NCBI GenBank assembly: GCA_046052345.1
Contig: JBJOMN010000066.1
Location: 13,091 to 77,090, forward strand
DNA from: Bacteroidota bacterium
GTDB lineage: Bacteria; Bacteroidota; Bacteroidia; AKYH767-A; 2013-40CM-41-45
Direction: 5' to 3'
DNA length: 64,000 nt
The notes beneath the pieces were generated by a model. That model was given only the letters and a program-made list of their open reading frames with translations. It was not told the origin of the DNA and did no database searches. This document shows positions 6,631-64,000 of this stretch, in pieces (the stretch's first letter is position 1; every line of letters begins with the position of its first letter). Position numbers and translations under genes: made by a program.

Positions 6631-7857
6631 ATGCCGCACGTTTCAAAAAAAGGGCAGGAAATGCCCCCATCCCCCATCCGCAAACTTGTTCCTTTTGCCG
6701 AAAAGGCCAAAAAAGAAGGGCGCAAGATCTATCATCTGAATATCGGTCAGCCGGACATCGAAACTCCCGAGACGATGCTGAAAGCGATACACGAGTTTCC
6801 GCTGAAGGTGGTGGAATACAGCCATTCGGCCGGCATCGAATCCTATCGCAGGAAGCTGACCACCTATTACAAGAGGTACGGCATATCACTGGATTATACC
6901 GAGATCATGGTGACCACCGGCGGTTCGGAGGCCATCGAGATCGCGATGATGAGCGCATTGAACGAAGGAGACGAGGTCATCATTCCCGAACCGTTTTACG
7001 CCAATTACAACGGCTTCTCCACCCAGGCGAATGTCAAAGTGGTGCCTATCCGCTCTACCATCGACACCGGCTTCGCGCTGCCGCCCGTTGAAGAGTTCGA
7101 AAAGCTGATTACGCCGCGTACACGTGCGATCATGATCTGCAATCCGAACAACCCGACGGGCTATCTGTACTCCCGCGAGGAACTCGAATCCCTGAAGGAA
7201 ATCGTCCGCAAGCACGATCTCTGGCTGTTCTCCGACGAGGTGTACAGGGAATTCTGTTACGACGGAAAACAGTACTTCTCCGTCATGAACCTGGAAGGGA
7301 TCGAACAGAACGTGGTCATGCTGGACTCCATCTCCAAACGCTACAGTGCGTGCGGAGCGCGTATCGGCGCTCTTATTTCCCGCAATAAGGACCTCATGGC
7401 TACCGCGCTGAAGTTCGCCCAGGCCAGGCTCAGTCCGCCGACGTTCGGTCAGGTGGCCGCAGAAGCGGCGATTGACACTCCCGACAGCTACTTTGAAAAG
7501 GTGAAGGCGGAATATGTTTCGCGCAGGGACTTTGTCGTGGAGGCACTCAACCGGATGGAAGGCGTCTACTGTCCGAAACCGAGCGGCGCATTCTATTGCA
7601 TCGCCCGGCTCCCTATCGACAATGCTGACAAGTTCTGTCAGTGGCTGTTGGAGAAATTCTCGTTCGAGAACCGGACGGTCATGCTCGCTCCTGCCACCGG
7701 CTTCTACTCCAATCCCTCCTTAGGGACCGACGAGGTGCGTATCGCCTATGTTCTGAACAAGGAAGACTTGGGACACGCCATGCAGTGTCTCGACGAAGCG
7801 CTGAAGGTCTATCCGGGAAGAAGGATCGAAGCCGGCGTACTCAACACAGCCGGATAA
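6631..7857 (+). CDS. Pyridoxal-phosphate-dependent aminotransferase, class I/II (aspartate/aromatic aminotransferase-like)
   Basis: 408 aa with aminotransferase class I motifs (NPNNPTGY, SKRYSACGARIG). Alternative start at ATG 6661 (MPPSPIRKL). Confidence 0.85.
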   Translation: MPHVSKKGQEMPPSPIRKLVPFAEKAKKEGRKIYHLNIGQPDIETPETMLKAIHEFPLKVVEYSHSAGIESYRRKLTTYYKRYGISLDYTEIMVTTGGSEAIEIAMMSALNEGDEVIIPEPFYANYNGFSTQANVKVVPIRSTIDTGFALPPVEEFEKLITPRTRAIMICNPNNPTGYLYSREELESLKEIVRKHDLWLFSDEVYREFCYDGKQYFSVMNLEGIEQNVVMLDSISKRYSACGARIGALISRNKDLMATALKFAQARLSPPTFGQVAAEAAIDTPDSYFEKVKAEYVSRRDFVVEALNRMEGVYCPKPSGAFYCIARLPIDNADKFCQWLLEKFSFENRTVMLAPATGFYSNPSLGTDEVRIAYVLNKEDLGHAMQCLDEALKVYPGRRIEAGVLNTAG

Positions 7858-51518: not shown

Positions 51519-52799
51519 TCATCGGGCAATGACCACGCGTACAGTGCGATTCACTTCTCCGTTGGACAAGTTGAGGAAATAGACTCCTTCCGGTTGCTCG
51601 CTGAGATCCAACCGAAGCACCTGTCCGGAGGGACGAACGAGATACTCCGACTTTACAGTACGTCCGAGGCAGTCTGCCACCGTAAGCCTGAGGTCGCCTA
51701 CGACGGAATGAACGAGAAAGAGATCGAGGTCAAAAATGCCGTTGGAAGGATTGGGATAGACGCTGAAGTTGAAGGTGCGATCCAAATCACTTATTCCGCT
51801 GGAAGGTGACTGGCAGGCAGTCGATGTGAGCAGAGAAGGCTTGTAGGAACTCATGGCGTTCACCATGCGTAACGACTGCTGGTTGGTGAACATGTTCAGA
51901 CAGATATCGTCGCAGTAATCCATGTAATTCATGAACTGCACGCCGTTGCCTGAGACTGCACAATTATCATACAACGGAAAGGTGGGACAACCGTAATTTT
52001 CCGCGCCCTGGTTGGGCGTGTCTCCACAGAAATCAGTACCGGTACAGGTGCCGTTATCGTCCCCCCAGATATGGGAAAGCCGGAAGCAATGACAGATCTC
52101 GTGGACGGAGGTACGGCCCAGGTTGTAGGAAGGCTGCAGCATACCACCTACACGCCCAAAGGCGTTATACTGTATGACAAGTCCGTAGGTGGAAGAAACG
52201 GTAGCGGTCGGAAATTCACCATATCCCAGCACTGCTCCCCCGAGGTTGCACACCCAGATGTTCAAATAGCGTGACGGGTCCCAGGGGTCCAATCCGCCAT
52301 TCGCATAGCGTTTTACGTTGTCATTCGTACTGAAAGAGGATACTGTCGTATTGCGCCGCTCGATACCGTTGGTCGGGTTGCCGTTAGTATCGGTTTGGGC
52401 GAGACAGAAGCGAAAGGGGGTTGCAGCGGCTACAGAGCGGAATACCGAAGGCGTATTCCCCGTATCAGCATTCAGCCGGGCGAAGTCCTCGTTCAGGACA
52501 TCGATCTGCGACTGTATCTGCTGGTCGGAAATATTCTGACCGGTAGTACGCCAGACAACATGCACCACGACGGGTATGGTGTATATGAGGTTGGTTTGAC
52601 GGGAGGCAGCGCTCCGTACCGCCATCGTTTCCAGTTCTCGGTTTTCCTGCTCGAAGCGCTGACGAAGCTCGGGATCCGCGGACATGCGGGCGTTCCAATA
52701 CTCGGTGGTGGCACAACGCTTCACCCCGGTCTCTGCGAAGGTCGGCTTGATGAATGCTGCTGCGGAAAATAGGATGGATAATGCGGCTTTCCGTATCAT
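51519..52799 (-). CDS. Secreted zincin-type metalloprotease with T9SS type-A C-terminal sorting domain
   Basis: 426 aa with a signal peptide. HEICHCFRLSH (HExxH...H with Arg where metzincins have Gly) and a Cys-rich region. C-terminal ~85 aa VYPNPSNGIFDL...GVYFLNLSNGEVNRTVRVVI matches the T9SS sorting-domain pattern. Confidence 0.75.
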   Translation of the reverse strand: MIRKAALSILFSAAAFIKPTFAETGVKRCATTEYWNARMSADPELRQRFEQENRELETMAVRSAASRQTNLIYTIPVVVHVVWRTTGQNISDQQIQSQIDVLNEDFARLNADTGNTPSVFRSVAAATPFRFCLAQTDTNGNPTNGIERRNTTVSSFSTNDNVKRYANGGLDPWDPSRYLNIWVCNLGGAVLGYGEFPTATVSSTYGLVIQYNAFGRVGGMLQPSYNLGRTSVHEICHCFRLSHIWGDDNGTCTGTDFCGDTPNQGAENYGCPTFPLYDNCAVSGNGVQFMNYMDYCDDICLNMFTNQQSLRMVNAMSSYKPSLLTSTACQSPSSGISDLDRTFNFSVYPNPSNGIFDLDLFLVHSVVGDLRLTVADCLGRTVKSEYLVRPSGQVLRLDLSEQPEGVYFLNLSNGEVNRTVRVVIAR

Positions 52800-52896: not shown

Positions 52897-53535
52897 TCAC
52901 AGGTTCGTGCGTCTCATCATCGATTTTCGGAAGTCGACGAATTCCAGTTCAAACACGGCACCCGGATTCCATGCAGGTAAAATCAAAGATCCGATTCTTA
53001 CCCGTACCAGCCGCAGTGTGGGAAATCCGACAGCGGCGGTCATACGCCTGACTTGACGGTTCTTGCCTTCGGTGAGGGCGAGCGACAGCCAAGAGGTCGG
53101 AATGCTCTTCCGGAACCTTACCGGAGGATGACGCTCCGGCAACGTTTCAGGAGGAGCAGCGGCGGATGCGCGACATGGAGCTGTCCTGAAAACACGGCCG
53201 TCGACCGAGATATCCACTCCGGAACGCAGGCGGGACAAGGCTTGTTCGGTCACCTCCCCTTCCACCTGGATGAGGTATTCCCGCTCGTGTGCGTTTGCAG
53301 GATCGAGCAATAAGCTGTTCTGACGACTGTCGTTGGTGAGGAGCAATAACCCTTCACTGTCCGCATCCAAGCGGCCGATCGGGTAGACGTCTTTTGGAAA
53401 ATCAAAGGAAAGGTCCGCCAGTACGGGACGGTCCCCTTCTTTGGAAAAGCGGGACACCATGCCATAGGGCTTGTAGACAGCGAAATATCTGAAACGAGAA
53501 TGCATACGCAGACCGCACGAAGTTAATGCAGACAT
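52897..53535 (-). CDS. Pseudouridine synthase, RsuA/RluB family
   Basis: Catalytic-Asp motif region (PIGRLDADSEGLLLLTND). Probable start at the internal ATG MHSRFRYFAVYKPYG. Confidence 0.8.
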   Translation of the reverse strand: MSALTSCGLRMHSRFRYFAVYKPYGMVSRFSKEGDRPVLADLSFDFPKDVYPIGRLDADSEGLLLLTNDSRQNSLLLDPANAHEREYLIQVEGEVTEQALSRLRSGVDISVDGRVFRTAPCRASAAAPPETLPERHPPVRFRKSIPTSWLSLALTEGKNRQVRRMTAAVGFPTLRLVRVRIGSLILPAWNPGAVFELEFVDFRKSMMRRTNL

Positions 53536-53539
53536 TGAC

Positions 53540-53547
53540 TATTTTTG
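53540..53547 (+). promoter_or_regulatory. -7 element TAttTTTG upstream of TonB-dependent receptor locus; about 150-nt leader
   Basis: tatttttg matches TAnnTTTG. No -33 TTTG at canonical spacing. ATG at 53701. Confidence 0.35.
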
Positions 53548-53700
53548 CATCAGATTCAACCCGCCCCCGTAAACAGGCGATCATTCAACCGGGAACCGAA
53601 CTTTACGTGTCATGCACATGCTGACGTAGAATCGCATGATATACCCTGCAGAACATCCGGCGACATCCCCATTCACCAGTCCATTCGAACCATTCTTCCT

Positions 53701-55965
53701 ATGAAACGATTGTGGGCGATTACGGTCGTAATCGCCATATCCTTCTCGGCGCGCGGACAGTTGCGCGGAACCGTGACAGACAAGAGCACCGGGCAGCCCG
53801 TTCCGGGAGCCACGCTGCTGCTTCCTGAGCTCAAACAGGCGACAATCACGGATGCCACGGGTGGCTATGTTTTCCCTGATCTTAAAAAAGGGAAAATCAT
53901 GCTCCAGGTGCGCATGCTGGGATACGGCGGATTGAACACTACCGTGGATCTGAATACACGCACCGTAGCGGATTTCCAGCTGGAGACCAGCATCCTGGAG
54001 CACAGCGAAGTGGTGATTACCGGATCCGCCTTCACGGTGGACGTCCGTAGGACGCCTCTGGCGGTAGTTCCTTTGGAGGGTTTGCAGATCACACGGACCG
54101 GTTCCGACAACCTGATACAATCCCTTACGGCCGTTCCAGGAATTTCCACCATCAGTACGGGTAACGGTATTGCAAAACCGGTGATACGAGGTCTAAGCTA
54201 CAACCGGGTCGTCATTGTCAACCAGGGAGTGAGGCAGGAAGGTCAGCAATGGGGCAGCGAGCACGGGCCGGAAATAGACCAGTTCGCCGCCGAACATGTG
54301 GAGATCCTCAAGGGTCCTGCATCCTTGGAATACGGCTCGGACGCTATCGGCGGCGTCATCCATCTGCTTGAGCCTGTCCCTCCTCCTCAAGGTGCAGTGC
54401 GTGGCCGACTGAACAGTCAGTTCTCCACGAACAATCTGCTCACCGGCAACTCACTGCTTCTGGAGGGGAATCACTCCGGCTTCGTCTGGAGGACGCGTGG
54501 AAGTTATAAATCAGCAGGTCCTTTCAGGACGCCGAAGGAAACGGTATACAACTCCGGTTTTTCCGAGAATGCGCTGGATATGATGGCAGGTGTGAACCGC
54601 AGGTGGGGTTATTCGCACCTGAATTTCAGCCGCTGGAGCTCTCTTCTTGGCCTCACGGAGGGAGACAGGGATTCGCTGACCGGGGCGTTCGTAGACGGTG
54701 ACGGCCGTGTCTTAACGGAAAAAGAATTGAACGGAAGAAAGCCCGTTACGCCTTTTCAGCGTGTGGAACACCTAAGGATCGCGAGCACCAACAATGTGAT
54801 ACTGGGAAACAAACAACTGCGCATGAATGCCGGATTACAGCAAAACGGCCGGAGGGAATTCGAAGATTCTCCGGACTCCCCGGGAATAAACATGCGACTC
54901 AGAACCGCCACTTTCGATTCAAGGCTGCTCATGACATCGGGCAGCTCCTTTGAAGCCGCCGCCGGATGCTCAGGCATGTTGCAGTCGAATGAGAACCTGG
55001 GACTGGAGTATCTGATACCTGATTATCGAAGTATGGATGCCGGCATCTTTCTTACGGCCAAATCGAGCCCGGGCCGCTCCACTTTCAGCGGAGGATTAAG
55101 ATTCGACACCAGAAGTATGCGATCTGAAAGTCTGATGATCGAGCAGGACACCGTATTCAACCGCTTGGAGAAAGAGTTCATGGCGTTCACCGGTTCAGCG
55201 GGCTGGTCGTTTTCCTTCAACGACCGCAACTCGGTGAAAGCGAATTTCGGCAAAGGCTTCCGTGCGCCAACGGTTTCCGAGCTCTCCGCGAACGGTTTGC
55301 ACGAGGGCACTTTCCGTTACGAGGTAGGGAATCCGGCGTTGCAGCCGGAAGTTTCCTATGAGTTCGATGCCGGAGTCATCCATGACCGTGAGCTTTTTTC
55401 GGTCCATGCCGACCTTTTCGTCGGATACATCAGGGACTTCATCTACTACGCCCGGTCGCTGAACGAAACAAGAGCCGTGGACGGAGGCATTTATCCTGTC
55501 TATCGATACCTGCAGGACAATGTCGTCCGACAAGGTGGCGAACTGACATTGGACCTGCACCCCTGGCCTGCCCTGCATTTCGAAAACTCTGCGGCGTTCG
55601 TCTATGCCGAAAACAGGAATACAGGCCGGCCGCTCGCATTCACGCCACCGGCCCGCACAACCCATGAGCTGCGCTATGATTTCAAAAGCCGTAGCAAAAA
55701 AGGCAGCATTTATTTCAACTTCTCCCTGGATAACGTCTTCGCTCAGAACCGTATCGACGAATTCGAGACCTCTACGGCAGGGTATCTTCTGCTGAATGCA
55801 GGGGCAGGATTCGAAGGGAGGATCGGAAAAACCGGCCTCCGGCTTTTCGCAAATCTCAGGAATATCACGAATGAGACCTATTTCGACCACCTCAGCCGAT
55901 ACAAGGACATTTCGGTGAACGGGCCCGGGAGGAATCTGACGACCGGAGTAGAAATTGATTTTTAA
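53701..55965 (+). CDS. TonB-dependent receptor with N-terminal carboxypeptidase-regulatory-like domain (no SusD partner)
   Basis: Start at MKRLWAITVVIAISFSARGQ, giving 754 aa. CarboxypepD_reg-like N-terminus (LRGTVTD...GATLLL...TDATGGYVF), plug domain and 22-strand barrel. Ends in a terminal aromatic (…VEIDF). Confidence 0.9.
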   Translation: MKRLWAITVVIAISFSARGQLRGTVTDKSTGQPVPGATLLLPELKQATITDATGGYVFPDLKKGKIMLQVRMLGYGGLNTTVDLNTRTVADFQLETSILEHSEVVITGSAFTVDVRRTPLAVVPLEGLQITRTGSDNLIQSLTAVPGISTISTGNGIAKPVIRGLSYNRVVIVNQGVRQEGQQWGSEHGPEIDQFAAEHVEILKGPASLEYGSDAIGGVIHLLEPVPPPQGAVRGRLNSQFSTNNLLTGNSLLLEGNHSGFVWRTRGSYKSAGPFRTPKETVYNSGFSENALDMMAGVNRRWGYSHLNFSRWSSLLGLTEGDRDSLTGAFVDGDGRVLTEKELNGRKPVTPFQRVEHLRIASTNNVILGNKQLRMNAGLQQNGRREFEDSPDSPGINMRLRTATFDSRLLMTSGSSFEAAAGCSGMLQSNENLGLEYLIPDYRSMDAGIFLTAKSSPGRSTFSGGLRFDTRSMRSESLMIEQDTVFNRLEKEFMAFTGSAGWSFSFNDRNSVKANFGKGFRAPTVSELSANGLHEGTFRYEVGNPALQPEVSYEFDAGVIHDRELFSVHADLFVGYIRDFIYYARSLNETRAVDGGIYPVYRYLQDNVVRQGGELTLDLHPWPALHFENSAAFVYAENRNTGRPLAFTPPARTTHELRYDFKSRSKKGSIYFNFSLDNVFAQNRIDEFETSTAGYLLLNAGAGFEGRIGKTGLRLFANLRNITNETYFDHLSRYKDISVNGPGRNLTTGVEIDF

Positions 55966-56004
55966 AAGCGGGAAACAATCTTCCCGTGCTACTCGTTAGA
56001 ACCT

Positions 56005-56433
56005 GTGAGAAAAAAAACATCCATGAAGTCCTCCTATCTCTTCCTTTGTTCCGCCGTCCTTGGAGTCGCATTTTCCTGCTCGTCCTGCAAGGACGAAGAT
56101 ACTTGTACCGCAGGAACCGGTGGCAATCTCACCCTTGTAGCACAGCTGGCCCACCATGGCGATGTCATCCCCAACGACTCCCTTTATCCCGATACCGTCT
56201 GGGTGAAGTTCAATGTCTCCGACTGGGCAAATGCCCCCCAAGGGTACGACCTGCAGGTAATCGGTGAGTTTCCGGAGGACCATATCCACATCGAAGGACT
56301 TAAATGCGGAAAATATTACCTCTACGGATCGGGCTGGGACGCGTCCGTCAGTCAGGTCGTAAAAGGCGGAAAGCCATTTGAAACAGACCAAACGGATGGG
56401 GAAATATCGACCACCATACCCGTCACGGAATAA
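56005..56433 (+). CDS. Small lipoprotein, prealbumin/CarboxypepD_reg-like single domain (paralog A)
   Basis: 142 aa with a lipobox (AFSCSSC). C-terminal motif LKCGKYYLYGSGWD. Confidence 0.6.
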   Translation: MRKKTSMKSSYLFLCSAVLGVAFSCSSCKDEDTCTAGTGGNLTLVAQLAHHGDVIPNDSLYPDTVWVKFNVSDWANAPQGYDLQVIGEFPEDHIHIEGLKCGKYYLYGSGWDASVSQVVKGGKPFETDQTDGEISTTIPVTE

Positions 56434-56450
56434 ATCCGTAAAAAGATCAA

Positions 56451-56478
56451 AAAAGCCCGCCAAAGGGCTTTTTTTTTA
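56451..56478 (+). terminator. Rho-independent terminator (possibly partial/attenuating inside the locus)
   Basis: aaaa agcccgccaaagggct ttttttttt. Confidence 0.65.
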
Positions 56479-56503
56479 TGAATAAATTTCGTATCTTCAG
56501 GGA

Positions 56504-56893
56504 ATGTCAGGCAGTTTGCTCAGGCTTTTCCTTCCTTTGGCAGTTATCCTCACTGCCCTGTCGACTTCATGCACGAAAGACCACGAAGGCCGAGTCGTTC
56601 CGGGAACTATCAATCTGGAAATATCAGCGATTCATCATTCCTGGGGCGTGCCTTACGTACCGGTGCATCTGAAAATGAACACCCGCGAATTCCCCGGAGA
56701 GGATTCAGCATCCTACGATTTCCATGGCCTTTGCGATAATGAGGGAAAAGTGCGCTTCGAACAACTCTATCCCGGTGATTACTTCGTTTACATCAAAGGG
56801 TACGACCTGATCTGGGGGGATACCGTAACCGGCAAGGTGGCACTTCAATTACAACAACCCTCTGTGAACGTCACCGTTCGCGTAAACGAGTGA
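56504..56893 (+). CDS. Small lipoprotein, prealbumin/CarboxypepD_reg-like single domain (paralog B)
   Basis: 129 aa with a lipobox (LSTSC). Motif LYPGDYFVYIKGYD parallels paralog A. Confidence 0.6.
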   Translation: MSGSLLRLFLPLAVILTALSTSCTKDHEGRVVPGTINLEISAIHHSWGVPYVPVHLKMNTREFPGEDSASYDFHGLCDNEGKVRFEQLYPGDYFVYIKGYDLIWGDTVTGKVALQLQQPSVNVTVRVNE

Positions 56894-56896
56894 CCT

Positions 56897-58348
56897 ATGA
56901 GACGTATTCCGCGAATCCTTTTTTTTACTGCAGCCTGGATCCTTCTGCTTCAAGGCTGTAAGCCGGATCCGGTGGAACCGGACACCTGCGGGTTTCCGTC
57001 GGACGTGGCCGACATCATCCTTACTCGTTGCGCCACTCCGGGATGCCACAATGATATCAGCTACGGGAACGCAGGCGGAATCAATCTGAGCTCATGGAGT
57101 TCCGCCTTCGATTTCGGAAGAGCCGGCAGCAGCATCATCCCCTACTCGACCGACTACAGCTATCTGCTTTACTTCGTAAATACGGACAGCACCAGAGGTC
57201 CTGCCCTCCAACCCACTATGCCGTTGGACCAAGCGGCTTTATCCGCTTCCGAATACGAGGCGTTGAAAAACTGGATCCGAAGAGGTGCTCCCGACAAGGA
57301 CGGAAGACTTCGCTATCCTGCCGACCCTTCCCGCAAGAAGATTTACACGTGCATGCAGAGCTGCGACCAGGTTGCTGTCATCGATGCGGCATCCAACAAC
57401 ATCATGCGGTACATCCCGGTGGGGTCCAGTCCCATGGCGACTGAGGCCCCCCACCAGGTAAAGGTCTCTCCCGACGGGCAGTACTGGTATGTCGTGTTCT
57501 ACTCCGGCAGCGTTGTCCAGAAGTTCAGGACATCTGACGACAGCATCGTCAGCCAGACCTATATCGGTCCCGGCCAGTGGAACACACTCATCATCAGCCC
57601 TGACGGAAGAAAGGGGTTCGTGAACGGAACCGATATCGGCACTACTGTCGAGATCAATCTGGAGACCATGGCGCCCGGTCTGCAGCATTCGTTCAACCCC
57701 TCGCCGCATGGCGGCTTCATCACTCCCGACGGACGATGGCTTTATCTTACCCAGCAGACGGGCAGTTTCGTCACCAAAGTGGATCTCACCACGTACGATA
57801 CGGATCAGATCTTATTGGGAGGAACACCCGGACAGGACAGTCATGAAATGACCTTATCGCCTGATGGCACCCGCTACTTTGTCAGTTGTCAGGCTACAGG
57901 ACAGGTGCTGGCTTACCAGCTTTCCAACGACAGCCTGCTGGCAGTGATCAATGTCGGGGCAAAGCCGCAGGAATTCGCCGTATCCAGCCACCGGCCATAC
58001 GTGTATGTCACCTGTACCGAGGAACCCGTTGACGCTTCACGAAAAGGCCTGGTGTATGTCATCGATGCAGTGAATCTCACTGTTACCGGTACGGTTTACA
58101 CCGGCTTCCAGCCGCACGGAATCGCTTACGACAGCGACCGTCAGCTGGTGTATGTCGCGCATCTCAATCTGGACCAAAGCGGACCTGCACCTCATCACTT
58201 CTCCATGTGCGGTGGAAGGAACGGTTACATCACCTGCATCGACGAGCGTACCGGCGGACTACTTCAAAAAAGCCTTCCGAACGGTGCTGTATTCAATTAC
58301 CGTCAGGAAGTGCTGCCGGCGCCCTATTACATCAGTTACAAGCGGTAA
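56897..58348 (+). CDS. Lipoprotein fusing a PSCyt1-like (Planctomycete cytochrome-c-type) N-terminal domain to a YVTN-type beta-propeller
   Basis: 483 aa with a lipobox (LLQGC). N-terminal ~110 aa (DVADIILTRCATPGCHNDISYGNAGGINLSSW...PALQPTMPLDQAALSASEYEALKNWIRRGAP) follows the PSCyt1 pattern but with CX4CH. The remainder has repeated beta-propeller blades (PDGQYWYVVF, SPDGRKGFV, TPDGRWLYLT, SPDGTRYFVS, RPYVYVTC, RQLVYVAH). The start overlaps the previous stop by about 3 nt. Confidence 0.7.
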   Translation: MRRIPRILFFTAAWILLLQGCKPDPVEPDTCGFPSDVADIILTRCATPGCHNDISYGNAGGINLSSWSSAFDFGRAGSSIIPYSTDYSYLLYFVNTDSTRGPALQPTMPLDQAALSASEYEALKNWIRRGAPDKDGRLRYPADPSRKKIYTCMQSCDQVAVIDAASNNIMRYIPVGSSPMATEAPHQVKVSPDGQYWYVVFYSGSVVQKFRTSDDSIVSQTYIGPGQWNTLIISPDGRKGFVNGTDIGTTVEINLETMAPGLQHSFNPSPHGGFITPDGRWLYLTQQTGSFVTKVDLTTYDTDQILLGGTPGQDSHEMTLSPDGTRYFVSCQATGQVLAYQLSNDSLLAVINVGAKPQEFAVSSHRPYVYVTCTEEPVDASRKGLVYVIDAVNLTVTGTVYTGFQPHGIAYDSDRQLVYVAHLNLDQSGPAPHHFSMCGGRNGYITCIDERTGGLLQKSLPNGAVFNYRQEVLPAPYYISYKR

Positions 58349-58382
58349 AAAAAAACGCCCGTCACCGGGCGCTTTCAGTTTT
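58347..58382. terminator. Bidirectional rho-independent terminator
   Basis: aaaaaaaaa cgcccgtcaccgggcg ctttcagtttt between the convergent beta-propeller gene and mdh. Confidence 0.7.
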
Positions 58383-58397: not shown

Positions 58398-59336
58398 TCA
58401 GGCCGTCTGCTTCATATTGTCGAGAACGTCCATGACCTCCTTGACTGCCTTTGCGGAATCGTGCACCAGTTTTAGCTCATCCTGATTCAGCTTCAGTTCG
58501 ATGATCTCTTCGATCCCGTTCTTACCCAGCTTCACGGGAACGCCGAGGTAAATGCCTTTCAAGCCGTATTCTCCGTTGAGCAATGCACAGCAGGGGAAGA
58601 TGCGTTTTTGGTCCTTGACAATGGCTTCCACCATCTGTGCGGCGGCAGCACCCGGAGCATACCAGGCCGAGGTCCCCATCAGGTTCACCAATTCGCCGCC
58701 GCCCTTCTTGGTGCGTTCGACGATGGCATCAAGCTTGTCCTTGTCGATGAGTTCAGTCACGGGAATTCCGGCAACTGTGGTATACCGTGGAAGCGGCACC
58801 ATGGTATCGCCGTGACCTCCCATGAGAACCGCCTGGATGTCCTTGGGTGATGTATTCAGTGCTTCGGCGAGGAAGGCACGATAGCGGGCGGTATCGAGGA
58901 TACCCGCCATTCCGAAGACGCGCTTGCTGTCGATCTTGGCCGTGAGGTAGGCGCAGTAGGTCATCACGTCAAGCGGATTGGAGACGACCACGATGATGGC
59001 ATTCGGAGAATGCTTGATGATATTTTCAGTGACAGAACGGACGATTCCCGCATTGGTAGCGATGAGGTCGTCGCGGCTCATGCCTGGTTTACGCGGCAAG
59101 CCCGAGGTGATGACGACCACGTCCGAACCGGCAGTTTTGGAATAGTCGTTGGTGCTGCCCGTGATGCGTGTATCATACAAATTGATGGGGCTCGTCTGCC
59201 ACATGTCCAGGGACTTCCCTTCTGCAATACCTTCTTTGATGTCGAGCAGAACGACTTCATGAACGAAATCCTTGTGGGCGATTACATCGGCACAAGTGGC
59301 ACCTACGTTACCGGCACCTACGACAGTTACTTTCAT
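58398..59336 (-). CDS. mdh: Malate dehydrogenase (LDH-like type)
   Basis: 312 aa with GAGNVG Rossmann motif and catalytic GGHGDTMVP. Confidence 0.92.
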   Translation of the reverse strand: MKVTVVGAGNVGATCADVIAHKDFVHEVVLLDIKEGIAEGKSLDMWQTSPINLYDTRITGSTNDYSKTAGSDVVVITSGLPRKPGMSRDDLIATNAGIVRSVTENIIKHSPNAIIVVVSNPLDVMTYCAYLTAKIDSKRVFGMAGILDTARYRAFLAEALNTSPKDIQAVLMGGHGDTMVPLPRYTTVAGIPVTELIDKDKLDAIVERTKKGGGELVNLMGTSAWYAPGAAAAQMVEAIVKDQKRIFPCCALLNGEYGLKGIYLGVPVKLGKNGIEEIIELKLNQDELKLVHDSAKAVKEVMDVLDNMKQTA

Positions 59337-60123: not shown

Positions 60124-63100
60124 ATGCCATGGTGGTTGCCGGCTTTGCTGCTGCTATTTTCCGTCGCGGCCGTTGCACAACCATCGAATGATAATCCGTG
60201 CAACGCAATCGCACTTACTGTGGGAGCGACCTGCAGCTACACTTCGTTCAACAACACGAACGCCACCAACACGACAGGAGTTCCTGCTCCGGGCTGCGGA
60301 AACTACCAGACCGGCGATGTATGGTTTACCGTGACGGTACCTGCCGGCGGAGCCATCAACTTCGACACCCAGATCGGCACCATGGTAGACGGAGCCATGG
60401 CCGTATACACCGGAACCTGTAACTCCCTCACCTTGCTGACGTGCGACGACAATTCCAGTCCCAATGGCAGCATGCCGGCGATCGGACTTACAGGGCAGAC
60501 GCCCGGCACAGTCCTTTACATCCGTATGTGGGGAAGAGCATCCGGGCAAAGTGCTTCTTTCGGTGCTTTCGGCATCTGTGTCTCCACCCCGCCTGCAAAT
60601 GACAACCCCTGCAACGCCACGCCGCTTACGATTTCGGCAACCGGTTGCACTTACATCCAGGGTAGCAACCTGAACTCCACCAGCACCACCGGGGTTCCGG
60701 CGCCGGGCTGCGGTCTTTACAACGGCCAGGACGTATGGTTCTCCGCCACGGTGCCTTCGACGGGCTCCATCGTCTTCCAGACCCAGTCGGGAACCATGAC
60801 GGACGGGGCCATGGCGGTTTACAGCGGCGGCTGCAACGCTCTGAGTCTTGTATCGTGCAACGACGATGCCGCCACCGGAGGAACGATGCCCGGACTTACA
60901 GCCTCCAATCTTACGCCGGGCTCCACCGTCTACATCCGTTTTTGGAGCTACAATAACGCATCTAACGGGACCTTCCAGTTGTGCGGCCGACAGAACACCC
61001 CGCTCGCCCCGACCAATCAGGACTGTGCCAATGCGATTCCGATCTGTCAGAACGTCTATTCCAATCCGATCTCGTATGTCGGCACCGGAAACGTCCTTAA
61101 CGAAATCACCCCGGGGATCAGCTGTCTGGGAAGCGGTGAACGAAATGATGTCTGGTACACCTTCACCGTGCAGCAGAGCGGCAACCTGAATTTCACCATC
61201 ACGCCGGTGAACATGTCGGATGACTATGACTGGGCGGTTTACAACCTCACCAATGCCAGCTGCGCCAACATCGCTACGAACGGTGCGTTGCAGGTAAGCT
61301 GCAACTACTCCGCTACACCGGGTAATACAGGACCGACTGGAGCAGGTACGACGAACAGTCAACCTGCCTCGGGCGTCCCCTTCAACCAAACAATTCCGGT
61401 TACCGCGGGCCAGACCTACGTGGTCAACGTGAGCAACTACTCGGCGACAGCCGACGGTTATACCATCAACTTCGGTGCATCCTCAGCCGTCATCTTCGAT
61501 AACATACCTCCGCAGATGACCGGATTGACATCCGCCACAACGTGCGGCTCCTCGCAGCTGACGTTTAACTTCTCGGAGAATATCCTTTGCAGCACCATCC
61601 AGAACGGCGACTTTACGCTTACAGGACCCGGAGGTCCGTATACCATCACGGGATGGTCTGCTGCCGGTTGCGCAAACGGAGGCACCTACGGGCGTTCGGT
61701 CACTGTGACCATCTCGCCTGCCATCCGCACGAGCGGATCCTTCTCCTTCTGCCTGGGGAACGCCGCCGGGTCGGTCACCGACCTTTGCGGAAACGTGGCG
61801 CCGCCCGCCTGTTTCACCTTCACCATCGCTCCTATCACCCTTACCACTTCCACGGTGAATCCTGCCTGTAACGGAGGCGCCACCGGAAGCGTGACGGTAA
61901 GTCCCACCACGGGAGTGAGTCCTTACACCTACGTCTGGTCGCCGAACATCGGAAACACCTCTACCGTCAACAACGTAGCCGCAGGAACCTATTCCGTCAC
62001 AGTCACCGACGCGAACGGATGCACTGCCACGCAGAGCGTGACCGTTACCAATCCTCCTCCGATGACTACGACGGCCAGTGTGACATCACCGCCGTGCGCT
62101 AACCAGACCGGCACTGCCACCGCTTCGCCTAACGGAGGAACATCGCCTTACACCTACAGTTGGAGCCCTTCGGGCGGTACGGGCGCCTCTGCCACAGGAC
62201 TTGCTGCCGGAAGTTACACCGTAACGGTCACTGACAGCCGCGGTTGCACGGCAACTGCAGCGGTCACCGTCACCGCTCCTGCGCCTTTCACAGCCAGTGT
62301 CACCGCCACTACCAACCCACGCTGCAGCGGTGCGACCAACGGCTCTGCCACCGTCAGCGCAAGCGCCGGTGCTCCGACACCTGTCACGTACGCATGGGCT
62401 CCTTCGGGAGGAACGGGTGCCACCGCCAACAACCTCGGTGCGGGAACGTACACCGTAACCGTGACGAACGGCAACGGCTGTACGGCAACCACTACAGTGA
62501 CTCTCACCGCTCCGCCGGCCATCACCCCGTCTATCACCGCATTCCCTGCCACTTGTAACGGTACAGCAACGGGATCCCTGACAGTAGCCGCCACCGGCGG
62601 AACCACGCCTTACACTTTCGCCTGGTCGCCAAGCGGCGGCACCTCTTCTACCGCCAATAATCTTGCCGCGGGTAATTATACGGTCACGATCACGGATGCG
62701 AACGGTTGCACGGCCAGGGTAGGCGGCGTTGTGAGCCAGCCGCCTGCTGTAAACGGAACCACCAGTTCGGTGCCCGTCACCTGCAACGGTCTCTCCAACG
62801 GATCCGCCAGCGTGGTCGCTTCCGGAGGCACAGCACCTTTCACCTACAACTGGCTACCCAGCGGCGGAACCGGATCGACCGCCAACAATCTTTCCGGAGG
62901 GACTTACACTGTCACCATCACAGACGCCAGAGGTTGCACGGCTACTCGGACCGTGACAGTAGCGCAGCCTTCTCCGATCACCTACACCTCCACCAGCACC
63001 ACTGCCACCTGCGGACTCAGCGATGGCAGCGCTCAGATCAACGTGCTAGGCGGAACAGGACCTTATCAGTATGACTGGTCTCCGAGCGGAGGCAGCGCCT

Positions 63101-64000
63101 CCACCGCATCCGGATTATCGGGAGGGGCGTATACGGTGTTGGTCACAGACGCGGCGGGTTGCACCGTACAGGCGGCGGTCAGTGTATCCAATACGACACC
63201 TGCTACAGCCACCATCACCGCTTCCACCAACGTAAGTTGCGCGGGCGGCAGCAACGGTTCCGCCACTGTCAGTGTTTCAGGAAGCACCGGAGCAGCCCAA
63301 TATGTCTGGTCTCCCTCCGGAGGCACAGGGGCTACAGCAACCGGACTCGATGCAGGAACCTACTCGGTCACTGTAACTGACGGAAGCGGTTGCAACACGG
63401 TGGCTACAGTCACCATTACCGCTCCGCCTCCTCTTACGGCAGCCATTTCAACCGTAACACCGGCTGCCTGTGCCGGAGCAGCAAACGGGTCAGCGACTGC
63501 GCTTGCCGGGGGTGGAACTCCGGGATATACCTACAGTTGGTCAGGTGGTGCAGGAAGTTCAGCTGCCGCATCGAACCTTGCCGCAGGATCCTATACGGTA
63601 ACTGTCACTGACAACCAAGGTTGCACCATGACAGCCACTGCGACAATAACAGCACCGCCGCCGATCACTGCCGCAGTCTCTGCCACGAACGCCACCTGCA
63701 ACGGTTCGGCAAACGGTTCTGCGACGGTCACCCCGTCCGGCGGATCACCCGCCTACACCTACAGCTGGACACCTTCTGGCGGCAGCGGAGCTACAGCAAC
63801 CGGCCTTTCCCCCGGATCCTATTCCGTCACCATCACTGATGCCCACGGATGCACCTTTTCCGCTGCTACCACTATCACGCAGCCTCCGCCTTTGGCAGCA
63901 TCCATCACGCCATCCAATATCCTTTGCTCAGGAGTCAGCAGCGGATCCGTAACCGTTTCCATTGGCGGCGGCACTTCGCCCCTGACCTATGTCTGGTCGC
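60124..64000 (+). CDS. Giant cell-surface SprB-repeat protein (3' end truncated by window): signal peptide, three PPC-like N-terminal domains, at least 10 SprB-type repeats
   Basis: Frame from ATG 60124 (MPWWLPALLLLFSVAAVAQPSNDNPCNA...) is open to the window end, so it is absent from the ORF track. Two approximately 130-aa domains share NDNPCNA..L...GVPAPGCG.Y...DVWF...DGAMAVY.G.CN.L.L..C.DD...PG..VYIR.W. A third is a divergent PPC-like domain. From about 61860 there are at least 10 tandem ~78-aa units C.G..NGSA.V...GGT.PYTY.WSPSGG....A..L..G.Y.VTVTD..GCT (SprB repeat). Confidence 0.85.
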   Translation, partial: MPWWLPALLLLFSVAAVAQPSNDNPCNAIALTVGATCSYTSFNNTNATNTTGVPAPGCGNYQTGDVWFTVTVPAGGAINFDTQIGTMVDGAMAVYTGTCNSLTLLTCDDNSSPNGSMPAIGLTGQTPGTVLYIRMWGRASGQSASFGAFGICVSTPPANDNPCNATPLTISATGCTYIQGSNLNSTSTTGVPAPGCGLYNGQDVWFSATVPSTGSIVFQTQSGTMTDGAMAVYSGGCNALSLVSCNDDAATGGTMPGLTASNLTPGSTVYIRFWSYNNASNGTFQLCGRQNTPLAPTNQDCANAIPICQNVYSNPISYVGTGNVLNEITPGISCLGSGERNDVWYTFTVQQSGNLNFTITPVNMSDDYDWAVYNLTNASCANIATNGALQVSCNYSATPGNTGPTGAGTTNSQPASGVPFNQTIPVTAGQTYVVNVSNYSATADGYTINFGASSAVIFDNIPPQMTGLTSATTCGSSQLTFNFSENILCSTIQNGDFTLTGPGGPYTITGWSAAGCANGGTYGRSVTVTISPAIRTSGSFSFCLGNAAGSVTDLCGNVAPPACFTFTIAPITLTTSTVNPACNGGATGSVTVSPTTGVSPYTYVWSPNIGNTSTVNNVAAGTYSVTVTDANGCTATQSVTVTNPPPMTTTASVTSPPCANQTGTATASPNGGTSPYTYSWSPSGGTGASATGLAAGSYTVTVTDSRGCTATAAVTVTAPAPFTASVTATTNPRCSGATNGSATVSASAGAPTPVTYAWAPSGGTGATANNLGAGTYTVTVTNGNGCTATTTVTLTAPPAITPSITAFPATCNGTATGSLTVAATGGTTPYTFAWSPSGGTSSTANNLAAGNYTVTITDANGCTARVGGVVSQPPAVNGTTSSVPVTCNGLSNGSASVVASGGTAPFTYNWLPSGGTGSTANNLSGGTYTVTITDARGCTATRTVTVAQPSPITYTSTSTTATCGLSDGSAQINVLGGTGPYQYDWSPSGGSASTASGLSGGAYTVLVTDAAGCTVQAAVSVSNTTPATATITASTNVSCAGGSNGSATVSVSGSTGAAQYVWSPSGGTGATATGLDAGTYSVTVTDGSGCNTVATVTITAPPPLTAAISTVTPAACAGAANGSATALAGGGTPGYTYSWSGGAGSSAAASNLAAGSYTVTVTDNQGCTMTATATITAPPPITAAVSATNATCNGSANGSATVTPSGGSPAYTYSWTPSGGSGATATGLSPGSYSVTITDAHGCTFSAATTITQPPPLAASITPSNILCSGVSSGSVTVSIGGGTSPLTYVWS
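61860..64000 (+). repeat. Tandem coding repeats (about 231-237 bp period) encoding SprB-type repeats
   Basis: Recurrent DNA and protein units. They generate many spurious overlapping ORFs on both strands in the track (62214-63839). Confidence 0.8.

Follow-up and report, generated by a model that had tools for sequence, protein, structure and literature searches.

Does a TonB-dependent receptor gene that adjoins the gene for a beta-propeller lipoprotein necessarily form, together with it, a single surface capture-uptake system, as the receptor/propeller-lipoprotein pairs BtuB-BtuG (B12) and XusA-XusB (xenosiderophore) do in Bacteroides (PMC6143338, PMC13142918; PDB 8ptd, 8ptf)? We take up this question with four open reading frames (ORFs), all read in the plus direction, at 53.5 to 58.4 kb of a 64,000-nucleotide (nt) stretch of contig JBJOMN010000066.1 from a Bacteroidota bacterium; "the window" refers to this whole stretch throughout. 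An earlier, sequence-only reading of the window had proposed that the four genes make up one system of the BtuB-BtuG/XusA-XusB kind. The four co-directional genes are present as it described, but they are best explained as two separately conserved modules that have been brought together in this lineage, not as one fixed system. One module is the receptor; the other is the pair formed by a small lipoprotein and a cytochrome-propeller lipoprotein that we call PROP. The features on which this argument depends are as follows.

53701..55965, plus strand: TonB-dependent receptor, 754 amino acids (aa), with a CarboxypepD_reg-like N-terminal domain, a Plug domain and a 22-strand barrel
56023..56433, plus strand: mini-lipoprotein 1, 136 aa, with a lipobox (AFSC/SSC); alternative GTG start at 56005
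56504..56893, plus strand: mini-lipoprotein 2, 129 aa, with a lipobox (STSC); paralogue of mini-lipoprotein 1
56897..58348, plus strand: PROP, a 483-aa lipoprotein with a signal peptide, the lipobox LLQGC (Cys21), a cytochrome-c-like domain and a seven-bladed YVTN propeller
57029..57049, plus strand: codons in PROP for a candidate heme c attachment motif, CX4CH (C45-A-T-P-G-C50-H51)
57218-57223, plus strand: codons in PROP for a candidate axial Met108-Pro109

Distribution of the genes across Bacteroidota

Relatives of PROP are encoded in at least 440 species-representative genome stretches. We fetched 80 loci from among these candidates (the counts given below run to 81 loci), and every locus inspected belongs to Bacteroidota. 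A small lipoprotein gene lies immediately 5' of PROP in 51 of the 78 assessable loci and is present in two copies in 20. In 9 of 60 loci the receptor gene directly precedes the lipoprotein-PROP module, and in 14 of 47 it is co-directional and no more than 9 kb away. Among close relatives, four loci (L013, L018, L020 and L027) lack both the receptor and the small lipoproteins yet keep PROP in the same slot, between rluX and mdh, and three others (L011, L015 and L017) have the lipoproteins and no receptor. The mdh gene and an aspartic protease gene are found near PROP in 47 loci, which indicates an old synteny.

The reverse test, which started from receptors of this family (34 to 48% identical) in 80 metagenome loci, led to the same picture: PROP is carried by only 2 of the 52 loci that extend at least 2 kb downstream of the receptor. 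Since the pairing of receptor and PROP is facultative in both directions, the robust units are the small lipoprotein with PROP, on the one hand, and the receptor with an upstream ORF of its own, on the other. The sequence-only reading had named, as one thing that would refute it, a failure of the accessory genes to co-occur with this type of receptor, and the counts go part of the way there: the small lipoprotein and PROP do keep together, the receptor mostly does not join them, and the claim of one conserved four-gene system is not supported. A further partner of PROP is a gene for a DCC1-like thiol-disulfide oxidoreductase (PF04134, 4.4e-33), which overlaps or abuts the PROP stop codon in 28 of the 81 loci (e.g., L011:11476-11883 and L052:11458-11874), suggesting translational coupling in these relatives. 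Its product has no signal peptide, and the gene is missing from the window.

The cytochrome-propeller lipoprotein

The lipobox of PROP and its match to the YVTN repeat model (TIGR02276, 50.7 against a cut-off of 27.85) bear out the earlier description of a YVTN propeller lipoprotein, and its score against the YncE equivalog (NF052280) is 46.6 against a cut-off of 400. The 937 homologues, 40 to 94% identical among the matches listed, are annotated as "YncE family," hypothetical or unnamed, and all those with a named source organism are Bacteroidota metagenome-assembled genomes. An AlphaFold2 model (predicted local distance difference test, 91.3; predicted template modeling score, 0.89) consists of a helical domain and seven four-stranded blades. 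The helical, cytochrome-c-like domain occupies approximately aa 30 to 135 (aa 35 to 128 in the model), and the propeller approximately aa 146 to 483.

The N-terminal domain had been described as PSCyt1-like (PF07635). The window protein itself has no match to this model at an E value of ≤1 in our Pfam search, but 23 of the 32 aligned relatives do, the best at 4.8e-7. Across that 32-sequence alignment, C45-A-x-x-G-C50-H51, M108-P109 and W126 are invariant, and the patterns C[AS]xxGCH and xMP occur in 73/73 full-length orthologues from genome loci. A homologue search with the isolated domain returned 2 matches, a number limited by the word-index search. The cytochrome-like domain is real at the level of the family, and a heme center is predicted within it.

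The propeller, too, has conserved residues where a ligand might enter it. The starts of the innermost strands of the seven blades carry the conserved residues Y477, H186, W228/N229, H271, H316, Q358/E359 and H407, and above them a conserved loop, PHHxxxCGGRNG, contributes H433, H434 and C438; these placements come from mapping invariant residues onto DSSP strand positions, not from measured distances. In the model, the central pocket would be ringed by six invariant His residues, making it a probable site for a specific ligand or metal at the channel entrance.

Foldseek matched the propeller to 1l0q, a YVTN protein of the archaeal S-layer (6.8e-21), and to NosZ (query-normalized TM-score [TMq], 0.53 to 0.56), and the full-length protein to the cd1 nitrite reductase NirS and to NirN, which likewise combine cytochrome c with a propeller. 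BtuG1 and BtuG2 (8ptd/8ptf) were matched with an E value of 4.7e-15 and a target-normalized TM-score (TMt) of 0.72, and in a profile-to-PDB sequence search YncE (1.4e-12) and BtuG (~1.6e-4) were recovered, which upholds the likeness to BtuG claimed earlier. Membership in three enzyme families was considered and rejected: hydrazine synthase beta (55 against a cut-off of 560), cytochrome cd1 (PF02239, E value of 0.17; seven blades in the model against eight) and the clade III lactonase-type N2O reductase L-NosZ (NF052460; 40 bits against 700, with aligned regions that are not colinear). The known hosts of the last belong to Nitrospirota and similar phyla (PMC13477213).

The mini-lipoproteins

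Both mini-lipoproteins have the lipobox and the common ancestry that had been claimed for them, although as distant paralogues (BLASTP, 26% identity, E value of 2e-6). Across 74 members of the small-lipoprotein family, the lipid Cys, H44-H45 (73/74), Y98, D106 and a C-terminal Glu are near-invariant. Copies of the mini-lipoprotein 1 type also have a near-invariant C28/C95 pair and an EDH motif; mini-lipoprotein 2 lacks both and retains the HH, the Tyr, the Asp and the C-terminal Glu. Both proteins form a seven-strand prealbumin-like sandwich of the transthyretin-like/CarboxypepD_reg fold, and searches of Pfam, NCBIfam and homologues gave no family assignment; the homologue search with mini-lipoprotein 1 gave 24 matches, none of them named. 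The proteins of the locus are uncharacterized, as the sequence-only reading had held. The second Cys of the mini-lipoprotein 1 lipobox is followed in CKDED by a stretch that we take to resemble the Bacteroidota surface-export signal K-(D/E)2. In one relative read at the sequence level (L003), the two small lipoprotein genes are ~20 nt apart.

The receptor

The receptor was recognized by Pfam through CarbopepD_reg_2 (1.9e-16), Plug (PF07715, 5.2e-18) and the TonB barrel (PF00593, 1.2e-30), with PF07715 and PF00593 above their cut-offs. It most likely starts at ATG 53701 (MKRLWAITVV..., a signal peptide) and not at TTG 53545, the intervening 52-codon in-frame extension being without a counterpart in relatives. 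The claim that it is a CarboxypepD_reg receptor with no SusD partner holds: no SusD-like ORF was found in 53.5 to 58.4 kb by ORF list and Pfam search, and membership in SusC/RagA was rejected, since TIGR04056 gave 51 bits against a cut-off of 368 and matched the N-terminal part only.

The best NCBIfam match of the receptor is TonB-hemin (TIGR01785), at 157.9 bits and below the cut-off of 316.85, and the hemoglobin/transferrin receptor model is also among the best matches, far below its cut-off. The ZnuD model (NF038289) gave 110 bits against 950, the OprC/NosA copper model (TIGR01778) 60 bits against 472, and the BtuB model (TIGR01779) 52 bits against 600; an OprC profile match (E value of 3e-13) covers the C-terminal third only. 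The nearest solved structures are ZnuD (4rdr; profile E value of 4.5e-40) and then PhuR (6.7e-30). The receptor carries an FRAP-X10-H...NPxL...E box (GFRAPTVSELSANGLHEGTFRYEVGNPALQPE), in which R521, P523, H534 and E550 are invariant in a 13-sequence receptor alignment scored for strictly invariant columns. This box corresponds to the FRAP...His...NPNL box defined in the HemR literature, and because ZnuD has it too, it does not specify heme. Receptor orthologues share the plug motif RQEGQQWGxEH; those from distant loci are 37 to 40% identical to the window receptor, and across 19 sequences 80 positions reach a conservation of 90% or more. With its similarity to ZnuD and PhuR and its FRAP box, the receptor might instead take zinc or heme as substrate. 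Membership in the CrtA family was rejected: the window has no cruR upstream ORF, the four-gene locus has no PepSY_TM gene, and PDB entry 9rvq, the 732-aa chain of which we take to be CrtA, was matched at only 1.4e-5.

Copper-linked genes around the relatives

The most constant partner of the receptor family is a small upstream ORF. Approximately 70 of 95 receptors of the family are preceded by an ORF of 100 to 130 aa with an N-terminal signal or transmembrane segment, a His-rich stretch and a Cys motif (CxxC in 38, HxHC in 17 and other Cys in 14; examples are L064:1614-1928, L075:3583-3897, L009:6354-6677 and L007 ~1850-2190). An R(A/G)PP sequence lies within 12 residues of the stop and, in the 38 ORFs of the CxxC type, 43 to 46 residues past the motif; endings of this type were found in only 74 of 2371 small ORFs of the receptor loci. 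In Bordetella, the copper receptor CrtA is controlled by CruR, an arrest ORF that responds to copper and has a CXXC motif, a 45-residue spacer and RAPP (PMC9426467, PMC12914433). The architecture of the upstream ORFs of the relatives is, by prediction, that of CruR/CutF-like ribosome arrest. Positions 53536-53700 of the window contain no CruR-like upstream ORF and no remnant of one (no R(A/G)PP in any frame); to judge from its sequence, the window copy has lost its metal-sensing upstream ORF.

Other copper-linked genes accompany the relatives. At distant loci, where PROP is 40 to 43% identical to that of the window, a single string runs from a small His-rich ORF through the receptor, a 123-aa Cys-rich protein, MbnP (2.9e-55), an MbnH-like di-heme peroxidase (1.1e-55), an outer-membrane-barrel-like protein and a small lipoprotein to PROP and a DCC1-like protein, and HMA proteins are interleaved in the MbnP/MbnH gene string. 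The receptors that adjoin MbnPH are 37 to 40% identical to the window receptor. Elsewhere, a multicopper oxidase secreted by the type IX secretion system (T9SS) and an HMBD-tailed protein stand beside the small lipoprotein and PROP. Together, the CruR-like ORFs, MbnPH, the multicopper oxidase and the HMA proteins favor copper as the metal of the receptor.

Three further protein families recur at these loci. T9SS-secreted Reeler-domain proteins (L036:5823-6695 and 6707-7285, minus strand; also in L045) contain T-C-A-x-S-G-C-H, a CX4CH as in the N-terminal domain of PROP, and adjoin a secreted multicopper oxidase and thioredoxin-like proteins. In 11 loci (e.g., L003:6683-7066 and L052:6044-6415), a membrane-anchored protein of 123 to 127 aa with the motif CxNKxKPxxxCNGKC, which matches no assigned family, separates the receptor from MbnP or from the small lipoproteins; a jackhmmer map had suggested a third mini-lipoprotein in L003, which is in fact a member of a different, Cys-rich family of 123 to 127 aa. 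An FG-GAP-repeat protein of ~740 aa with a T9SS sorting domain adjoins PROP or the receptor in 13 loci (among them L039, L066, L067, L081, L037, L075, L076 and L078).

Flanking genes and control elements

The surroundings of the four genes bear on whether they are expressed together, and five features enter here.

Start at 53535: pseudouridine synthase gene, divergent from the receptor gene
53540..53547, plus strand: TATTTTTG, a match to TAnnTTTG, the Bacteroidota -7 promoter element, read in the sequence within the gap upstream of the receptor gene
56449..56482, plus strand: intrinsic-terminator-like hairpin AAAAAAGCCC-GCCAAA-GGGCUUUUUU (56449-56474) with a U tract, nine U in all, between mini-lipoproteins 1 and 2
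58356..58371, no strand assigned: GC hairpin CGCCCG-TCAC-CGGGCG with A9 upstream and an interrupted T tract downstream, between the PROP gene and mdh
Stop at 58398: mdh, convergent with the PROP gene

The gap between the pseudouridine synthase gene and the receptor gene is 165 nt, and TATTTTTG does stand there as the sequence-only reading had said. The window contains 14 copies of TAnnTTTG where 16.6 would be expected, and at such a chance frequency the motif alone is no evidence of a promoter; only its position is suggestive. The 165-nt receptor leader contains no Rfam family (scan of 52.8 to 59.5 kb at an E value of ≤1), the single hit being a chance snoRNA match; a riboswitch in the leader was rejected on this result, and specifically a cobalamin riboswitch was not found.

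Downstream, 57 nt separate the receptor gene from that of mini-lipoprotein 1, and the PROP ATG at 56897 lies 3 nt past the stop of mini-lipoprotein 2 (TGA, 56891-56893), which contradicts the overlap of start and stop, and with it the translational coupling, reported earlier. The hairpin between the two small genes, which the sequence-only reading had missed, was detected by a terminator scan on the minus strand, read in the sequence and folded on both strands. Its plus-strand fold has -13.6 kcal/mol (z of -3.45), and 1 of 200 shuffles was equally stable. It may split the locus into two transcription units or attenuate its transcription, and receptor plus mini-lipoprotein 1 may accordingly differ in expression level from mini-lipoprotein 2 plus PROP. 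A one-mismatch -7 element, TAAATTTC, follows the hairpin at 56484-56491, 13 nt 5' of the next ATG, and could serve as a promoter.

The hairpin at the end of the locus had been called a strong bidirectional terminator (58347-58382). Only its minus-strand form is strong (-17.9 kcal/mol; z of -2.95); the plus-strand form is weak (-11.9 kcal/mol; z of -0.09) and has an interrupted T tract (CTTTCAGTTTT), and the hairpin would serve as a good terminator for mdh only. Farther out, positions 60124-64000 (plus strand) encode the first part of a giant cell-surface protein with SprB repeats (2.4e-69) and a T9SS-associated galactose-binding domain; an abrupt rise of G+C to ~0.6 and a strongly negative GC skew coincide with it. 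On the other side, 51519-52799 (minus strand) encodes a zinc metallopeptidase of the M43 type that ends in a T9SS sorting domain, both named from Pfam matches of the syntenic homologue in L003. The peptidase gene is kept beside rluX and MqnA in close relatives, in ~20 of 81 loci, a long-range synteny unrelated to the four genes.

Interpretation

We tentatively prefer a reading, all mechanistic steps of which we infer, in which metal import, most likely of copper, is coupled to a redox-active, metal-handling lipoprotein pair. The first module is a Bacteroidota TonB-dependent transporter related to ZnuD and the heme receptors; it most likely imports a metal, with copper, free or chelated, as the best candidate, an assignment that derives from gene context in relatives. 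The second module, found across Bacteroidota, comprises one or two transthyretin-fold His-His lipoproteins together with a predicted mono-heme cytochrome-propeller lipoprotein and would work with or without a neighboring receptor. Where a receptor is adjacent, as in the window, it would supply the metal across the outer membrane. The propeller pocket of PROP would bind the metal or a metal-chelate, the heme domain would give an electron to the bound metal or take one from it, for instance by reducing Cu(II) to Cu(I) and freeing copper from its chelate, and the His-His lipoproteins would act as metal shuttles or chaperones. The redox step is proposed by analogy with CrtA of Proteobacteria, whose PepSY_TM partner has been suggested to act in this way. 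Where the sequence-only reading had named heme, a metal or a cofactor as the substrate, a metal thus stands as plausible, and the context of the relatives points to copper rather than to heme or B12.

Several observations pull the other way. The closest characterized relatives of the receptor are zinc (ZnuD) and heme (PhuR, ShuA) receptors, not copper receptors, and it bears the FRAP/NPxL box typical of heme receptors. The window lacks the upstream ORF and the MbnP/H, HMA and DCC genes, and MbnP/H were found in 0 of the 52 metagenome receptor loci. DUF2946 was not among the Pfam matches of the upstream ORFs of relatives at an E value of ≤10, and published surveys record CutF-like ORFs in Bacteroidota and note that copper specificity does not extend to every ORF of this kind (PMC9973294). 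Since most propeller genes stand without a receptor gene beside them, the two modules need not be functionally linked. The His ring of the PROP pocket is placed by strand positions, and the binding of metal or heme is a prediction.

Two alternatives deserve the most weight after this one, and we regard both as unlikely. The first is a trap of the BtuG/XusB type, in which surface-exposed PROP, perhaps with the small lipoproteins, binds an organic cofactor or metallophore such as heme, a corrinoid or a chalkophore with high affinity and hands it to the receptor, the cytochrome-like domain being accessory or non-redox. The fold of PROP and its weak sequence similarity to BtuG1/BtuG2 speak for such a trap, as do the lipoprotein nature of all three accessory proteins, the presumed export signal in the CKDED of mini-lipoprotein 1, a receptor that is adjacent in the window and, in 14 of 47 relatives, no more than 9 kb away, and the heme-type FRAP/NPxL box and TonB-hemin match of that receptor. 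BtuG and XusB, however, are tied to their receptors, whereas PROP mostly occurs without one and the receptor family almost never occurs with PROP. A CX4CH...MP arrangement kept in 73/73 orthologues argues for a working heme center, which a passive trap would not need, six invariant His residues in one pocket exceed the needs of a tetrapyrrole site, and the receptor is not a BtuB (52 bits against 600 for TIGR01779).

The second, to which we give a similarly low probability, makes PROP a stand-alone metalloenzyme resembling cd1, NosZ or thiocyanate dehydrogenase, with a His-ligated center and an electron-transfer heme, the small lipoproteins as assembly chaperones and a receptor that supplies the metal or is adjacent by chance. 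In NosZ, the CuZ site combines His residues at the inner-strand entrances with an adjacent HH, and PROP has a like arrangement. The full-length structural matches to NirS and NirN, the propeller match to NosZ and the weak sequence matches to the hydrazine synthase beta, Cytochrom_D1 and L-NosZ models fit an enzyme, as do the many genomes in which PROP persists by itself at a conserved chromosomal slot and the copper-supply genes (MbnPH and HMA) of some relatives. The enzyme-family models, on the other hand, score far below their cut-offs (40 against 700 for L-NosZ; 55 against 560 for hydrazine synthase beta), PROP has seven blades where cd1 has eight, and nos, nir and other pathway genes were found near PROP in 0 of 81 loci. 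A lipid anchor and a close association with a His-His protein of 115 residues suit metal handling just as well as catalysis, and the context suggests no substrate. A more specific version, that PROP is an unrecognized oxidoreductase with a His-ligated cluster of copper or another metal and a built-in heme c, analogous to NosZ or thiocyanate dehydrogenase and unrelated to them in sequence, with the His-His lipoproteins as its metallochaperones and the CruR-regulated receptor/MbnPH cassette as its copper supply, seems to us quite improbable.

An adjacency with no functional meaning, in which a metal or heme receptor cassette was inserted beside an unrelated lipoprotein pair at a recombination-prone rluX-mdh slot, would account for the differences among close relatives in what the slot contains (nothing, the lipoproteins alone, or these together with the receptor), for the terminator inside the window locus and for PROP in only 2 of 52 receptor loci, but we consider it very unlikely: the receptor recurs co-directionally 5' of the pair in distant loci (PROP 40 to 43% identical) with different flanks, often with metal genes interleaved in the same string, a recurrence hard to obtain by chance given hundreds of receptor families, and the spacing in the window is tight (57 nt from receptor to mini-lipoprotein 1 and 3 nt from mini-lipoprotein 2 to PROP).

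Significance and comparison with known systems

The acquisition of copper across the outer membrane is poorly understood. CrtA, the first dedicated family, was not described until 2026, and then from Proteobacteria alone, and nothing comparable has been characterized in Bacteroidota, for which our search of the literature found no account of the PROP/small-lipoprotein pair or of this receptor family. What the locus and its relatives suggest is, first, a family of Bacteroidota receptors accompanied by CruR-like arrest ORFs and, second, a very widespread, unstudied His-His/heme-propeller lipoprotein pair, which may carry out the redox step in the uptake of a metal or represent a new metalloenzyme. 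The combination of receptor and lipoproteins and the metal-sensing upstream ORF are known in kind; the cytochrome-propeller lipoprotein with its His ring and its His-His partner are new. Specific residues (CX4CH, Met108, the His ring and HH44-45) can now be put to the test.

Five groups of known systems invite comparison. The CruR-CrtA-CrpH operon of Bordetella and Pseudomonas imports copper and supplies it to heme-copper oxidases (PMC9426467, PMC12914433, PMC13038864). Like it, the relatives, although not the window, have at the head of the receptor gene a short ORF for an exported product, in which R(A/G)PP follows CxxC after 43 to 46 residues; a redox-capable partner follows downstream, and MbnPH-like genes are part of some operons. 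The likeness ends there: the receptor here is not CrtA, there is no PepSY_TM gene, the phylum is different, the upstream ORFs of the relatives have no DUF2946 match, and the window copy has no upstream ORF. ZnuD, the Neisseria zinc receptor (4rdr), and the heme receptors PhuR, ShuA and HemR include the closest solved relatives of the window receptor and have the FRAP...H...NPxL box in common with it, whereas the extra CarboxypepD_reg N-terminal domain, the gene context and scores far below the family cut-offs set it apart.

PROP shares with NirS and NirN the architecture of a cytochrome c domain followed by a beta-propeller and, in the model, with NosZ a propeller with a His-ligated center at the channel entrance. 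It differs in that it belongs to none of the three by sequence, has seven blades rather than the eight of cd1, lacks a CuA domain, is lipid-anchored and has no denitrification genes nearby. With the Planctomycete cytochrome c domain PSCyt1, it shares the order of helix, motif, MP and WI..GAP, but the motif is CX4CH rather than CXXCH, and the partner domain is a propeller rather than PSD1/DUF1553.

BtuB-BtuG and XusA-XusB resemble the locus in outline, since here, too, a TonB-dependent receptor gene adjoins the gene for a seven-bladed propeller lipoprotein, and the propeller folds superpose. PROP, however, adds an N-terminal cytochrome-c-like domain with an invariant CX4CH and, in its model, a His-lined pocket; its constant partner is a His-His transthyretin-fold lipoprotein; the window receptor resembles ZnuD and the heme receptors, not BtuB; and the pairing of receptor and propeller is facultative in both directions. 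A receptor beside a propeller lipoprotein need not, in short, be an obligate pair of the BtuBG kind.

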